The position numbers were made by a program, and so were the translations under genes. Below, piece after piece: positions 6,461-58,620 of a stretch of DNA of 64,000 nucleotides (position 1 is its first letter; the number at the start of each line of letters is the position of its first letter). Location: the NCBI GenBank assembly GCA_951406725.2, contig OX597834.1, forward strand, positions 24,428,001 to 24,492,000. Direction: 5' to 3'. Source of the stretch: Octopus vulgaris (lineage: Eukaryota). The notes beneath the pieces were generated by a model, which searched no databases, was not told the DNA's origin, and saw only the letters and a list, made by a program, of their open reading frames with translations.

Positions 6461-6727
6461 GCAACAATAATAGTAATAGCAACGGTAGCATAAGAATATT
6501 GTGAATTAGGAATTGTTTCTTCGCCTATTTACAGAATTTCGGAACCACAAACTTATATATCTCTTAAGTATGTATTTTAAACTTGAGACTACTAGAAACA
6601 CGTATTCGTGTCCAAATATATATACATCTCTTATCATTTTTTTTTTATTAGACTGTGGCCAAGCTGGGGAACTGCTTTGAAGAATTTTAGTCGAACAAAG
6701 CGACCCTACTACTTATTTATATTTTAA

Positions 6728-6930
6728 GGTGGCGAGCTGGCAGAAACGTTAGCACGTCGGGTGATACGCTTACCGCTTTTCGTCTGCCGTTACATTGTGA
6801 GATCAAATTCCGCCGAGGTCGACTTTGCCTTTCACCTTTTCGGGGTCGATTAAATAAGTACCAGTTACGCATTGGAGTTGATGTAATCGACTTAATCCCT
6901 TGTTTAGCACCTTATGGGCAATAAAGAAAT
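6728..6930 (+). mobile_element. SINE family B inserted into the family A SINE
   Basis: Same head and tail as 5314-5543; flanks tatattttaag/tatatttttaag resemble a TSD. Confidence 0.85.
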
Positions 6931-7097
6931 ATATATTTTAAGCCTTCAATCGGTGTCTTTTTGCCGAACCGTTAATTTACTGGGACGTAAACACACAGCA
7001 CAAGTTGTCAAGCGGTAGTGGGTGACTAAGACAAACGAACACACACTTACACATACACACGTCCATGTATATATATATATATATATATATACATACA

Positions 7098-7632
7098 CAG
7101 GGTGTCCCAAAAAATGTATACACAGACTGCAACAGTCTGTCATGCCAAGCATTAGAGAGGACTTTGAACAGGAAGAGTTTTATTTCCAGCAAGACGGGGC
7201 ACCTCCACACTACCATCGCGATGTTAGATCCTTTCTTGATGGGATCTTGCCAAACAGGTGGATTGGACGGAGAGGTTTTGTCGAATACCCTCCACGTTCA
7301 GCAGACCTCACACCACTAGACTTCTTTTTATGGGGATACCTAAAGGACAAAGTCTACGCACAGAAACCTGCAACAGTCGTTCAATTGAGGGCAACCATTG
7401 AACATGAACGTACGAATATCCCAAGGGAATTGTTCCATGATGTGTGCCATTCCATCGCTTTGCGTTGTCAGCAGTGTCTGGAGCAGAACGGACATCAGTT
7501 TGAGAACATGCGATAACAAGACAATAGAATGCTATTTGTAAATTCTTTTACATGTTGAAAATTATTCGAATTATAATAAACCCCAAATTTACAATTATTT
7601 AAGGTGTGTATACATTTTTTTGGGACACCCTG
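7098..7632 (+). mobile_element. Internally deleted Tc1/mariner element, DD41D (rosa-type) spacing
   Basis: TIRs cagggtgtcccaaaaaatgtatacac (7098-7123) and gtgtatacatttttttgggacaccctg (7606-7632), with TA at the right end. The transposase C-terminus FQQDGAPPH…PPRSADLTPLDFFLWG has 41 aa between the 2nd and 3rd catalytic D. Confidence 0.9.
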
Positions 7633-7699
7633 TATATATATATATGCACGCATACACACATAAATACATATATACGAACTCTCTTTTATACACATACAC

Positions 7700-7944
7700 G
7701 TAGACTCACATTCACATCGCCGCCCACCTTCTGAGCCAAGTCCAGCTCCCTTCACTTCATCTCGGTGACTTCAGCACAACTCCTTGTCTTCAACACTCCG
7801 TTCATCTTTATGACCGCCCTTACCAGCTCCTCCTCCGACGATGACAACTCAGACCCGTTAAGGTCTGAATACATCATCTAAGCAACACAAAAAACTACGC
7901 CCGACTCTTACAAAATCCAGACAACAATAACCCGACGCATGCGC
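7700..7944 (-). mobile_element. ORF1-only retroelement, unit 3 (5' part only)
   Basis: Starts GCGCATGCGTCG after the 15-bp target duplication and encodes MYSDLNGSELSSSEEELVRAV… (ATG 7874), homologous to units 1 and 2. Confidence 0.8.
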
Positions 7945-7959
7945 GGAAGCAAGCTTCTT

Positions 7960-9415
7960 TATTTCAATTATTTTGCCATAAAGGCATTACACAGAGGGGA
8001 CACTACAAAAACATGTGGGGACATATAACAATTAAGAATATGTAAAAATAAAATGATACTGTGAGTGACATGAAAATGAACATGAGAAAATAAATTAAGT
8101 TTATGATAACATGCATGATATCTGAAAATGAAAATATGAAGAGTGTGCTACTCACCCCACACTGAGTAACACCACTCGCTGCCTTTGAGTCCGAATTCGT
8201 CTTTAGTCTCTGGTCTAGTCCTTCTATTTCCACTCTCACTATCGCAACATTCTTTCGCAACCTTTTTCACTGGGGGAGGGGTTTTCTAAATTCTGTGGTG
8301 TCTGCTCTTTTTTCTTTTTCTTTTTTTCTTGTGGGGAAAGGGAGTGGGTGGGTCTGAGTGGTCTTAGGTGGGATGGATTTGGACTGGGGTACCATATCAC
8401 ACTCAGTGTTCTTTCTTTTCTTCCTCTTCTTCCTTCTACTCTCTGCTACTATCCATTCTTCCTCCTTTCGTCCGTCTTTCTTTTCATCCTCTTTTTTCTC
8501 CTTCGTCTCCACAACTGGTTCATCTGTTTTTTCCTCTATCCTTTTCTTCTGTAGTGGGCAGTGTGCTCTAATGTGGCCTTTTTGGCCACATTTAAAGCAT
8601 CGCGGGATTCTGCCTTCCACCCATACTCTTAATACTATTTCTCCCATCGTCACCGTTTCCGCCAAATTTTCCAGCTCCCTCGCCTCCGCTTGTATGATTA
8701 TTTCCAGTATTTTTCCTCTGTAGCTTCCTTCCTCTGTCTCTGTGGCTTGGAGGACAGTCACCTCCTCCTCACTTCCAATGAGGACGGCTGCCGCAACCCA
8801 AGCCACTTTTATGTCAGGTGGAATTCCTTCTTCCCTCACCTTAGAATTCTTTCTTCCAAGATAGGAGGGTAGAAGTACTAGTTCCTCAGTTTTTACAGTT
8901 GTACTTGCCAGCCTCTTTGCCTCCTCTTCTGTCCTAAACTGGACAACCACCGTCCCATATCCGCTTCCTTTTGCTATATATCTTACTTCCTTCGAAGAGC
9001 TTTTTCTACTTTTTCCATCTTCATCTGCTCCACCCTCCTACTCTCCACTGAGTGCACCTTGTAGGTAATAGTCTTCTTTTCCATAGTTACCATAACCGTT
9101 TTCGGGGGTAATAACTTTACATCACTTCCCACCTTCTGTGTCATCTTACACAGCTCCTTCAGTTCGGTTAGGTCTACTTCCTTTTTCTTTACCTCTGCCG
9201 CGTCAGCAAAACTTTTTATTCTTTCCAAATGCTCGTCCATTCTGTTTACCGCCTTAACGAGCTCCTCCTCTGATGAGGATAGTTCATACTCGCTAAGGTC
9301 TGAATACATTCTTTTCCACTAGTACAACACTCGCCAACAAACCGCTGGCGAGCAGCTCAAAAGATTCCGTCCGCCTCGTCAAAACTCAACACAGCAAATA
9401 ATTCGACGCATGCGC
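7960..9415 (-). mobile_element. ORF1-only retroelement, unit 2 (1456 bp)
   Basis: Bounded by ggaagcaagcttctt at 7945-7959 and 9416-9430; A-rich 3' tail; no RT. Confidence 0.88.
8267..9309 (-). pseudogene. Frameshifted ORF1/gag-like zinc-knuckle protein (ORFs 8983-9309 and 8267-8950)
   Basis: CFKCGQKGHIRAHC (CX2CX4HX4C); collinear with the unit 1 ORF, with a small frameshifting deletion near 8990. Confidence 0.85.
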
Positions 9416-9430
9416 GGAAGCAAGCTTCTT

Positions 9431-10879
9431 TATTTTATTAAATTTGCCATAAAGGTAATACACAGAGGGGACACTACAACACATGTGGGGACATATAACA
9501 ATTAAAAATAAGATATGATATAATGAATGAACACGAAAATGCACATGAAGAACAAATTAAAATATGATAATATGAATATCTGAAAATGATAATATTAAGA
9601 GTGTGCTACTCACCCCACACTGAGTAACACAACTCGCTGTCTCTGGGTCCTGAGTCCTTTTTGTCTTTTCGTCCAATCCTTTTCCTTTTTCACTGACACT
9701 TAATGATAACATTCTCTCCGTCATGCATTCATAACCTTTTTCACCGGGAGTGGGGGTCTTCTAAATTTTGTGGTGTCTGTTTTTTCTTTTTCTTTTTTTC
9801 TTGAGGGGAAATGGGCTGGGTGGGTTTGGTGTCTGTATGGGGAGGGTGGGTCTGAGAGGTCTTAGGTGGGATGGGGTTGGACTAGGGTGCCACATCATAC
9901 TCAGTGTCTTTTCTTTTTTTCCTCTTTCTCCCATTGCGCTCTGCAATTTTCCATTCTTCCTCTTTTTTATCGTTTCCTCCGTCTATTTTGTCTTCCTCTC
10001 TTTTCTCTTCTGTCTCCGCAACTATATCCTCAGCCGTAGTCCTTCGTAGAGGGCAGTGTGCTCTAATGTGGACCTTTTGGCCACATTTGAAACAACGTGG
10101 TACTCTGCCCTCTACCCACACCCTCAGCACGATTTCCCCCAGCGTCACAGTCTCTGCCAAGTTCTCAAGTTGTCCCTCTTCCGTCTGAATAATTAACTCG
10201 AGCGTTCTTCCTTTCCACCCTCCTTCTTCTGTTTCTGTGGCTTGGAGGACAGTCACCTTCTCCTCGCTTCCAACAAGGACAGCTGCCGCTACCCAAGCCA
10301 CATTTATATCAGGCGGAATTCCTTCTACCCTTATCTTGGAGGTCCTTCTTCCAAGATACATAGGTAGAAGGACCATTTCCTTCGTCTTTACCGTTTTGCT
10401 CGCCAGCCTCCTTGCCTCCTCCTCTGTTCTAAACTGGACTACCATTGTCCCATATTGGTATCCTCTTGTCATGTATATTACTCCGTTGGATTCCTCCTTT
10501 ACTGCCTTTTCTATTTTCTCTATTTCTATTTGGTCGAACTTCTTACTCTTTATCGAGTAAACTTTGTATATGACGGTTCTTCTTTTTATGCCATCCATTA
10601 TTCTTTGTGGGGGTGACAACGTCACGTTGCCGCCCACTTTCTGCACCATTTTCCCATGCTCCTTCATTCTTGATAAATCCACCTCTTTTCTCTTCACCTC
10701 CACAGCCTCTGCGAAACTCTTCGTTTTCCTCAAGTACTCATCCATGCCTTCTACTGCTCTCAGCAGCTCCTCCTCTGAAGAAGACAGCTCAGACCCGCTA
10801 ATGTCTGAGTACATTGTCTTACCGTTGCAACAAAACCGACTCGCACACAAACGACAAACCAAATGCACTATGGGTAACC
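9431..10879 (-). mobile_element. ORF1-only retroelement, unit 1 (1449 bp)
   Basis: Bounded by ggaagcaagcttctt at 9416-9430 and 10880-10894; the latter continues into the SINE A head. Confidence 0.88.
9882..10814 (-). CDS. Non-LTR ORF1-like nucleic-acid-binding protein (RRM-like region plus CCHC knuckle), about 310 aa
   Basis: The ATG of MYSD is conserved in all three units. Contains CFKCGQKVHIRAHC and a K/E-rich tail. The TAG stop corresponds to CAG in unit 2, so it is probably premature. Confidence 0.8.
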   Translation of the reverse strand: MYSDISGSELSSSEEELLRAVEGMDEYLRKTKSFAEAVEVKRKEVDLSRMKEHGKMVQKVGGNVTLSPPQRIMDGIKRRTVIYKVYSIKSKKFDQIEIEKIEKAVKEESNGVIYMTRGYQYGTMVVQFRTEEEARRLASKTVKTKEMVLLPMYLGRRTSKIRVEGIPPDINVAWVAAAVLVGSEEKVTVLQATETEEGGWKGRTLELIIQTEEGQLENLAETVTLGEIVLRVWVEGRVPRCFKCGQKVHIRAHCPLRRTTAEDIVAETEEKREEDKIDGGNDKKEEEWKIAERNGRKRKKRKDTEYDVAP

Positions 10880-10914
10880 GGAAGCAAGCTTCTTACCACA
10901 CAGCCACGCCTGCG

Positions 10915-10955
<41 letters not shown>

Positions 10956-22885: not shown

Positions 22886-24544
22886 GATTCTTTATTACCC
22901 ACGAGGGGCCACACAGAGGGGACACTACAAACATTGGGGACATAGAACATCACAATCACAAGAATGAAAGATGGATTTTGAAAATGATATTATGAAAGTG
23001 ATGCTAACGGCCCCATCCGCTAGCATCACTTACCTGTCCTTTAGTTGTTAATCCCACACAAATGTTCCTTGTTCCATTCCTATACAAAATCCTTCCATCT
23101 CCATCCTTTTTTCAAACGTCTCTTCCAAATCCCTCATGATTTTTTCAACCATTCTCACTTCACTTACTTCCCAATCCTCCCTTTCACACATTTCCATAAA
23201 CTCGTCCATTCGTCCTTTTCCAATTACTGCATACCTGATCTTTCCTCTGTCACACCATTGATACTCTTCCATTTTCTTTTTAATCTTTTCTTTTCCCGTC
23301 ATACATACAATGTTTGGCCTGGGTTCATTTTTTGTGTCTTGGTTTTGTGTGTCTTTTCTTTTCTGTTTTCTTGTTGGAGGGGAGCGGGTGGGTTCACTGT
23401 CTGCAGGGAGAGGGTGGGACTCAGAGGGTGTGGGTGGTGTTGGGGTTCCATGTTGTTTTCTTTTCCTCTTATTCTCCTCTTTCTCTTTTTCCTGGCTTCT
23501 TCCCATTCTTGTGAATTTTCTTCCTCTTCTACTGTCTCCTTCTCTGGTTTCTGTTCTTTTTCCTCCTCACTTTGTGGCTCGGAATCCATTTCTTTCACTG
23601 GGGGACTGCAGTAAGCTCTTATGTGACCCCTCAGGCCACACTTGTAACAACGTGGAGCTCTGCCCTCCACCCACACTCTCATGGTTACGTCTCCCAATCT
23701 GATGTTTTCTGCTAGGTCCACCAGTACATCATCCTCTGCCTGCACATTTAGTTCCAGTGTCACACCTCTCCAGCCCTCGGTCTTAACCGAGGCATGGAGG
23801 ATGTCCACTTCATCTTCGTGGCCGCTGATTATAGCCGCCACAATCCACTCGGCTTCGACGTTTGGGGGTATTCCCTCGACCCTTACTCTTGTAATTTTTC
23901 TATTTAAATATGTAGGCAAAAGTATTACCTTCTCGGATTTCTCCGCCTTCGCCGCCATCTTCCTTGCTGCAGTCTCACTTTTGAACTGTACTACTACAGT
24001 ACCATATTTTGAACCTCTCGTCAGAAAATGAATTTCCTCTTCCGTTCTTCTTAGCGCCTCCTCTATCCACTCCATGTTTACCACTTCTATCTTTCTCTTT
24101 CCGCTTGCGTATACCCTGTATGTGATTGTCCTTTTCTCGTGCCATTCTTTTCTCTTGGGTATCGGTGCTAGTTCGACCTCACCGCTGTCCTTCTTCATAT
24201 ATTTCTGGAAACTTGGCAGCTTGGCCAAGTCCACCCCTTTCTCTTCCGCCTTCTTGGTCACACCGGCACAGGTATAACCCAGCTTCTGATCCATTTTCCT
24301 CACTGCTTCTTCTAGTTCCTCCTCGGACGTAGACAAGTCTGATAGAGACCCAAAAACTCTAGCCGTCTCTCCCATCAGGGAGGGGTCGTCCATATCCTCC
24401 TGTCTGGCAGACCGAAAACGGCCGCCCGAACAGAAACACGAAACCGTATCAACAAACGTACAAAATTCCACAACAACAATTTTCCCACTTACTTTTTGTT
24501 CTTTTTTACAAATTTCACGAGCCGAAAAAAACACAACTTACGTA
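22886..24544 (-). mobile_element. Solo ORF1-only retroelement (1659 bp) with 17-bp TSD
   Basis: gttatttcagaatactt (22869-22885) and gttatttcacaatactt (24545-24561); 3' tail gtcccctctgtgtggcccctcgtgggtaataaagaa. Confidence 0.88.
23048..24393 (-). CDS. ORF1-like CCHC zinc-knuckle protein (open 24393-23299; C-terminus probably continues in the 23048-23506 frame)
   Basis: CYKCGLRGHIRAYC; homologous to units 1 and 2 (RVEGIPP, RVWVEGR.PRC). Confidence 0.78.
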
Positions 24545-58219: not shown

Positions 58220-58620
58220 AGGGTGGTTGTGTAGCAAGAAGCTTGCTTCCCAACCACGTGGATCCGGGTTCAGCTCCGCTGTACGGCACCTTGGGCAAGT
58301 GTCTTCTATAAACTTAGGTTGATCGAAGCCTTGTGTGTGAATTTGGTAAACAGAAACTGAAAGAAGCCCGTCGCATACATGTGTATGTGTAGGTGGGTGT
58401 GTGGTTGTCGTCTCTCTTGTCCTACCAACACCGCTTGACAACCGGTGTTGGTATTTTCACGTCCCCATAATCCAGTTGTTCAGCTAAAGAGACAGATAAA
58501 ATAAGCACTAGACTTACAATAAAAATAGGAAGAGGTGTCGATTCATTCGACTACAAATTCTTAAAAGCGTTGCCCCAGCATGACCGTAGTCTAATGACTG
58601 AAACAAGTAAAAGATAAAAG
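58220..58620 (+). mobile_element. SINE family A, near full length (empty target site at 58236-58250)
   Basis: Head containing aagaagcttgcttcc, central GT-rich stretch, tail gactgaaacaagtaaaagataaaag. Confidence 0.85.

Follow-up and report, generated by a model that had tools for sequence, protein, structure and literature searches.

The targets listed in one source for long interspersed elements (LINEs) of the Tx1 group are DNA transposons, long terminal repeat elements, the U2, U5 and 5S RNA genes, satellites and microsatellites, and its list contains no short interspersed element (SINE); in the same source, Xenopus Tx1 resides in Tx1D, and the crocodilian Tx1-Mar resides in Mariner-N4_AMi with SINEU elements as passengers (PMC4494074). 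Non-autonomous LINEs in which the first open reading frame (ORF1) is present are exemplified by HAL1 (L1), HeT-A (Jockey) and Ag-Sponge (CR1) (PMC5786205), and elements specific for tRNA or U2 genes that use a restriction-like endonuclease include NeSL-1_TV, LIN15_SM, LIN25_SM and Utopia, the last with tandem insertions (PMC4640811). For Octopus vulgaris, 13 recently active L1-Tx1 families have been reported in a paper whose main text contains neither the word "target" nor the word "nested" (PMC13282606). Here we analyze a 64,000-nucleotide stretch of the O. vulgaris genome (OX597834.1:24428001-24492000, contig C21 in this analysis), hereafter the window, in which three ORF1-only elements, U1, U2 and U3, lie head to tail on the minus strand at 7700-10917 and are joined by one 15-base sequence (the 15-mer) that belongs to the head of a tRNA-derived SINE, SINE-A. 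We consider it very probable that these units are three independent insertions of L1/Tx1-like ORF1-only elements at a fixed SINE-head site, likely made with the enzymes of an autonomous family that uses the same site. At the level of sequence comparison, site specificity, target duplication, an autonomous family at the same site, a shared hairpin tail, purifying selection on ORF1 and re-use of junctions could all be established.

Relative to the systems as described in these sources, the octopus elements show both similarities and differences. Like Tx1 and Tx1-Mar, they combine an L1-group ORF2 with an apurinic/apyrimidinic endonuclease (APE), a fixed site in a multicopy repeat, non-autonomous passengers at the same target and stacked neighbors; unlike them, their target is the head of a tRNA-derived SINE between the boxes of its RNA polymerase III (Pol III) promoter, and, unlike the non-coding SINEU passengers of Tx1-Mar, the passengers encode an ORF1 protein (ORF1p). 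Like NeSL-1_TV, LIN15_SM, LIN25_SM and Utopia, they are site-specific in a multicopy sequence derived from a small RNA and are occasionally inserted in tandem; those elements use a restriction-like endonuclease and real RNA genes, whereas here an APE and a SINE are involved. With HAL1, HeT-A and Ag-Sponge they share ORF1 without ORF2 and a LINE-type 3' end, and they differ by a sequence-specific internal target with duplication, by a type I ORF1 with RNA recognition motifs (RRMs) and a CCHC knuckle, and by the presence of at least two separate ORF1-only lineages on one site and tail. HeT-A is also known to form head-to-tail arrays. HAL1 is defined by an L1-type (Transposase_22) ORF1 and a poly(A) tail; an assignment to HAL1 proper was rejected, as none of 31 ORF1s matched Transposase_22 and the tail is a hairpin without poly(A), so that only the mode is HAL1-like. 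In R2, the 5' junction forms by pairing with the upstream target sequence; similarly, the 5' terminus of the RNA of the octopus elements apparently consists of target bases, and their upstream junction tracks the element, but the endonuclease class is different, there are two ORFs and the duplication is 12-15 bp long. Our search of the full-text literature, which covered neither Repbase Reports nor most subscription papers, revealed no LINE that targets a SINE head and no cephalopod system of this kind. Tx1 elements that target transposable elements and ORF1-only LINEs are known separately, and their combination with a SINE promoter as target appears to be the new part. By analogy, the system would work like Tx1-Mar with its passengers and like HAL1 and HeT-A, with the SINE promoter as its target.

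Read along the minus strand, the array begins with the 5' part of a SINE-A head, including an A-box-like stretch (10895-10917); this part and the 15 bases after it align with bases 1-38 of an intact SINE-A (89%, E 5e-10). It continues with the first target copy (10880-10894), U1 (9431-10879, full length, 1449 bp, the youngest subfamily in the array), the second copy at the U1/U2 junction (9416-9430), U2 (7960-9415, full length, 1456 bp, a second subfamily), the third copy at the U2/U3 junction (7945-7959) and U3, the 5' remnant of a third subfamily (7711-7944). All three copies match the 15-mer exactly, and the same sequence is uninterrupted within a SINE head at 58236-58250; with up to two mismatches, the window holds 9 matches against 0.04 expected by shuffling. 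The coordinates given in a preliminary description of this DNA, and its statement that one 15-mer stands at every junction, were thereby borne out, with the refinement that the homology of U3, first drawn at 7700-7944 (245 bp), stops near 7711. Contigs from four sequencing runs cover the array at high depth, and none of them spans it.

U1 and U2 are identical in 1035 of 1387 aligned columns. The ORF1 of U1 (9882-10814, 310 codons) comprises an acidic N-terminal helix, two predicted RRMs and a CCHC knuckle; its frame ends at codon 311, before the point to which close relatives continue. The ORF1 of U2 (9309-8267) is frameshifted near 8995, where a 10-base gap separates it from its nearest relative, and, of the two complete units, Pfam detects the zinc knuckle only in the U2 frame (zf-CCHC, E 2.8e-4). 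A tblastn search of 7700-10917 with the partner ORF2 described below gave no match at E<=10. Thus, the designation of the units as ORF1-only stands, with the qualification that neither complete unit has a pristine ORF1. The A-rich tail ascribed to them proved to be a short hairpin followed by an AT-rich stretch without poly(A); the hairpin lies at 9445-9457 in U1, with one stem base mutated, and at 7974-7986 in U2.

We classify SINE-A as a tRNA-derived SINE with a tRNA-like head: 42 SINE heads score 45-51 against the best genomic tRNA genes, compared with about 28 for shuffled sequences. ARAGORN called no tRNA in 17 loci, and an Rfam search of the window SINE copies returned microsatellite artefacts only. 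Within the head, the site closely follows the A-box and precedes the B-box, both boxes being read by eye, and the 15-mer is absent from 30 sampled tRNA genes of 7 isotypes. The proposed nick TTCTT/A applies to the SINE variant of this window, and the commoner variant reads TACTT/A. Since an insertion separates the A and B boxes, that SINE copy would be silenced, presumably with little harm to the host. SINEs already named in octopuses include OK, OR1 and OR2, the last of which appears in PMC4758252. A second abundant SINE, SINE-B, occurs at 6723-6930 and five other places in the window, and also at loci L051, L065, L089, L115, L116 and L020. Its hairpin tail of the same kind as in these LINEs, its tandem runs inside its own heads and its occasional presence at the SINE-A site suggest that SINE-B is mobilized by this LINE group.

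A search of the 2.8-Gb genome with the U1 ORF1 returned at least 133 matches. We examined 54 loci from the top of this list and from the top of a 3'-end search, yielding 61 aligned pieces, which include the two of the window itself and a few copies split in two. As the preliminary description had predicted, other copies adjoin the SINE-head site rather than random flanks: the site follows immediately in 40 of the 41 U1/U2-type pieces that bear a 3' end, with the SINE remainder after it in 25, and the remaining piece has a lengthened tail and then the site. At the 5' end, the site is upstream in 39 of 50 pieces, 29 of them directly after a SINE head. The exact 24-base tail motif occurs 79 times in the genome, and among the first 30 by position the site comes next in 26. 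Genome-wide, there are 908 exact tail-plus-site junctions (0 in the reversed control) and 61,401 exact empty 34-base sites. The expectation that the copies lack reverse transcriptase was likewise upheld, with no ORF2 residue aligned in any of the 24 site-bounded U1/U2-type units. These ORF1-only elements show target duplication, 5' truncation and dispersed copies, that is, spread by retrotransposition.

As a control, we used 10 related ORF1-only elements with a different hairpin tail (41-47% amino acid identity, about 1.6-1.8 kb). None of the 10 is followed by the site, and 7 have candidate duplications of their own of 13-21 bp. A full-length element of this other-tail kind is present in the window at 22886-24544 on the minus strand (91% amino acid identity to L048), at a non-SINE site with its own 17-bp target duplication. 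At two further loci (L044:2268-3906 and L126), such elements interrupt the ORF1 of an older autonomous copy, apparently at one common position, which looks like a second preferred target or a propagated chimera.

Whether the 15-mer is a target duplication or the SINE-derived terminus of the element itself can be judged from the two sides of each insertion. In 30 U1/U2-type copies with both ends, the two sides agree at the variable fourth base in 29, over the first 12 bases in 17 and over the last three bases in 11. The last three bases differ in all eight solo U1-type copies that have both head and remainder, and in five of these the target-like stretch on the upstream side is doubled; both U1-type clades contain a mixture of single and doubled 5' junctions. 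In the autonomous partner family, the upstream copy ends in AAC in 20 of 20 cases, including all three whose downstream copy ends in TAC. An off-target, 5'-truncated U1-type copy outside any SINE has a different duplication of its own, 17 bp long, and off-target sites resemble the target in sequence. The doubled stretches and the dependence of the last three bases on the element family are what an element-borne terminus predicts. However, solo copies are flanked by the SINE head upstream and the SINE remainder downstream, position 4 and private variants, the latter present on both sides and at successive junctions, track the locus and not the element, the off-target copy has its different duplication, and the exact empty sites are numerous. 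We therefore give hardly any credence to the 15-mer as the element's own end: this reading is refuted for the first 12 bases and applies to the final three bases of the upstream copy. From the two-sided agreement, the AAC ends, the locus-private variants and the 17-bp off-target duplication, we conclude that the first 12 bases are a true target duplication and the last three of the upstream copy are element-borne, that internal junctions are re-used, and that the element RNA likely starts inside a target-like stretch, which would pair with the cut top strand. The earlier proposal that the site is regenerated as a duplication thus holds for the first 12 bases, which are copied from the target, and fails for the element-derived last three. 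Three near-identical loci on contig C29 (L077, L086 and L088) contain the same off-target 5'-truncated U1-type insertion in mariner-like sequence, and we interpret them as segmental duplication of one insertion event.

The alternative that one insertion was followed by local tandem duplication, or by unequal crossover between the flanking direct repeats, and then by divergence finds a parallel on contig C1 at 223.69-223.71 Mb (L201, L202 and L056). There, seven near-identical 2-kb ORF1-only units lie in one SINE, followed by an autonomous copy; the units are 98.7-99.9% alike (99.2-99.9% at neighboring positions), compared with 97.8-98.8% to the nearest other array, and two of them are without any substitution between them. 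Duplication likely contributed there, and that array probably grew partly in this way. In a tree built from the three window units and 52 pieces longer than 900 bases (55 copies in all), U1, U2 and U3 fall in three groups, with nearest copies on contigs C2 (94.5%), C7 (93.1%) and C1 (88.1%), respectively, and U1 and U2 are only 72.5% identical to each other, less than each is to copies on other contigs. Because each unit is closest to copies elsewhere, the window array is not a local duplication, in accordance with the earlier argument from divergent units; no locus-specific clade was found. Arrays elsewhere moreover mix families, including autonomous ones. For the window locus, the placement of the three units refutes tandem duplication, to which we assign almost no probability.

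An array could also arise in one event, if the reverse transcriptase, on reaching the 5' end of one RNA, jumped to the 3' end of another, or if it copied a multi-unit read-through RNA. The distances of U1, U2 and U3 to their nearest relatives differ (about 5.5, 7 and 12%), which suggests different ages, and locus-private variants are common to junctions between unrelated families; donor RNAs from elsewhere would not carry such variants. A single-event origin is accordingly very unlikely.

The preliminary description had also predicted an element with ORF1 and ORF2 at the same target. Such an element was found on contig C15, where 5449 bp lie between two site copies, downstream of a U2-type copy. 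Its ORF1 has a CCHC knuckle and is 37% identical to that of U1, and its ORF2 contains Exo_endo_phos (1.4e-12), RVT_1 (3.1e-26) and zf-RVT (2.9e-9) domains. The best solved match of this ORF2 is human L1 ORF2p (E 1.9e-52), R2 proteins follow at 3e-21 or weaker, and the solved endonuclease matches are only of the L1 type. A genome search with the endonuclease gave at least 151 matches; among the next 20 copies by score, all 20 end at the site and the SINE remainder, the sequence in front of them is a SINE head in 18 and the tail of another element in 2, and 5 retain an unbroken ORF2 of 1133 amino acids. Members are up to 99.9% alike, so we regard this partner family as young and recently active. 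It favors one SINE variant (17 of 20 copies, compared with 40 of the first 100 exact empty sites, p 0.0004). Of 15 older copies (72-88% identity in the endonuclease), 9 are flanked by the site on one side or on both, two of these in the variant of the window, and the other 6 are truncated or their end was not found; five copies at 60-68% in the endonuclease showed no site at their ends.

By these matches, the partner is assigned to the L1 group rather than to R1 or R2, and it likely falls in the Tx1 clade. An APE-type endonuclease with reverse transcriptase, the L1-group match, the target preference and a type I ORF1p are all consistent with Tx1; among APE elements, target preference is reported for Tx1 and R1 (PMC4640811). 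Protein searches returned no named Tx1 reference. ORF2 relatives come from Argonauta and cuttlefish, and a metagenome scan added 75 distant loci, mostly at 23-35% identity. A second autonomous family is represented by a 5.7-kb array unit at L209/L208 with the other tail, a SINE-A-type junction and an ORF2 57-62% identical to that of the young partner; its first 540 bases are 93% alike to the neighboring ORF1-only unit.

The ORF1-only elements share with the young partner just the last ~45 bases, which form a hairpin of three to four pairs with a five-base loop. Over 32 hand-picked tails, 93.8% of cells are paired, and double changes occur in two of the three pairs. Given the shared-tail rule for stringent LINE partners (PMC3747384), the partner ORF2p would recognize this hairpin. 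A strict rule that tail type sets target was ruled out by an other-tail autonomous element and SINE-B copies at the site. Origin of the ORF1-only elements by internal deletion of the young partner was also rejected, as there is no match over 18 bases and the ORF1s fall in separate clades; an older, unsampled autonomous parent is possible.

The AlphaFold model of the U1 ORF1 (predicted local distance difference test score 75, with values above 85 in the core) resembles tandem-RRM structures, at a best E of 5e-5, with the CCHC knuckle C-terminal to the predicted RRMs; zf-CCHC was detected in 21 of 31 ORF1s. ORF1 is therefore predicted to be a type I ORF1p with two RRMs and a CCHC knuckle, a type linked with Tx1 in non-mammalian animals (PMC5203782). 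Its named relatives are Octopus proteins only (O. bimaculoides and O. sinensis). One of them, the O. bimaculoides protein model P0002, has this ORF1 (57%) fused to C2H2 zinc fingers, probably a gene-prediction join. Between the colinear U1- and U2-type ORF1s, both without ORF2, the ratio of nonsynonymous to synonymous substitutions (dN/dS) is 0.16-0.20 at dS 1.0-1.2, the values being taken from open frames only, which biases those within subfamilies downward. This low ratio between two types without ORF2 shows that ORF1p was under purifying selection while the ORF1-only lineages spread, and the simplest reading would be that ORF1p acts in cis in its own transposition.

In a quick unrooted tree of 76 ORF1 cores, the U1/U2 group (36 rows) nests among the other-tail ORF1-only elements, apart both from the clade of the partner and from a second SINE-targeting ORF1-only clade with elements of about 2 kb. 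A single clade of all SINE-targeting elements was rejected by the approximately unbiased test (p-AU 0.002, 47 labelled rows, with two mislabelled rows dropped and the group named after the tree was seen); a single clade of the ORF1-only SINE-A elements was not rejected (p 0.062). The nesting suggests that the U1/U2 lineage switched tail and target, in a tree that is unrooted and with a tail rule that has exceptions.

Re-use of filled sites exceeds chance several-fold. On contig C1, four verified arrays contain 15 of the 80 exact junctions (8 of 73 when the largest array is set aside), compared with an expectation of about 3%, or 9% at most on generous figures, for equal use of empty and filled sites; two further close junction pairs on C1 turned out to be separate SINE copies. 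A mixed array on contig C7 (about 13.452-13.491 Mb; L285, L209, L208, L207 and L286) extends over more than 35 kb with 14 tail-site junctions and at least 17 ORF1 cores, and three locus-private site variants recur in it where unrelated families meet, at three, three and five junctions, respectively. Re-use extends even to degenerate junctions that carry three changes. Thus, the proposal that insertions build arrays by regenerating their site is supported by junction re-use, and it is limited by those arrays elsewhere that may stem from local duplication. Excess re-use in the face of more than 61,000 exact empty sites, the re-use of junctions with three changes and the preference of the partner for one SINE variant would also be expected if elements were tethered to Pol III factors or open chromatin at a few SINE copies, the arrays marking permanently accessible loci. 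Insertion is, however, base-exact and occurs also at internal junctions that lack both promoter boxes, and off-target sites are target-like in sequence. As the source of site choice, tethering appears unlikely; it is compatible with sequence-specific insertion as an added layer.

Copying likely proceeds by target-primed reverse transcription with the endonuclease and reverse transcriptase of the autonomous family, and the following steps may be proposed: (i) the element RNA would start a few bases upstream, within the duplicated target, and encode its own ORF1p, which packages the RNA in cis; (ii) the partner ORF2p would bind the 3' hairpin; (iii) the endonuclease would nick the bottom strand one base past the A-box and prime cDNA synthesis; (iv) the top strand would be cut 12-15 bases downstream and pair with the target-like cDNA end, because of which the first 12 bases would be target-duplicated and the last three of the upstream copy element-derived; and (v) each insertion would leave two sites, the junction between elements being itself a favored target, so that mixed arrays would grow.

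Several points weigh against this reading. For step (i), the evidence consists of junction patterns only. Eleven of the 50 pieces with a 5' end have no site upstream, and 4 of the 30 tails lack the site by the scripted rule (three visibly decayed sites and one unclear). Outside the last ~45 bases, nucleotide similarity to the young partner is absent, and ORF1 identity between the ORF1-only elements and the partner is 31-37%. With three to four pairs, the hairpin is short, and its shuffle control does not take kinship into account; the bias in dN/dS was given above. Tail and target are not strictly tied, given the other-tail autonomous element and SINE-B copies at the SINE-A site. Finally, no direct link ties U1-U3 to any one ORF2p, and we infer the cutting by the partner.

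Beyond U3, the host SINE can be followed further. A stretch at 7634-7699 on the minus strand is likely its microsatellite middle, left after a deletion (it weakly matches the corresponding part of another SINE-A, 79%, E 0.001), and its distal part persists at 6945-7057 on the minus strand (77% to bases 170-281 of the intact SINE-A, E 3e-19), beyond a DNA-transposon-like insert. Given this persistence, a deletion removed the 3' part of U3, its target copy and the SINE middle. The insert (7098-7632) lies inside the microsatellite of the host SINE and has 17-bp terminal inverted repeats and a transposase-like frame without a Pfam match; by its motifs, we take it to be Tc1/mariner. The U2- and U3-type 5' ends (9406-9415 and 7935-7944) open with a GC palindrome, and similar motifs start several other families at the site. 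The palindrome resembles an NRF-1 promoter site, and such motifs are perhaps internal promoters.

The broader proposal, for and against which we see about equal grounds, is that an octopus Tx1-like lineage uses the Pol III promoter of a SINE as a renewable safe harbor over successive subfamilies. It would support at least two ORF1-only lineages, one of them tail-swapped, with selected ORF1p, pairing of the RNA 5' end and junctions that are better targets than empty SINEs, leading to runaway growth of mixed arrays that reach tens of kilobases. The Pol III promoter of a SINE would then join the known targets of sequence-specific LINEs, in a three-level parasitism of a SINE, a LINE on the SINE and half-LINEs on the LINE. 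A single genome would allow tests of two questions. One is what makes ORF1-only LINEs retain ORF1p, given a dN/dS of about 0.2 in the absence of ORF2 in cis; the other is the way in which APE-type LINEs form 5' junctions, as natural variants tell target bases from RNA bases. Close relatives with and without the target offer a natural comparison for determinants of specificity, and a recently active, base-exact APE-type family is a candidate for work on site-specific insertion. For repeat annotation in this genome, consensus models of the SINE, the LINE and the half-LINEs will be chimeric.

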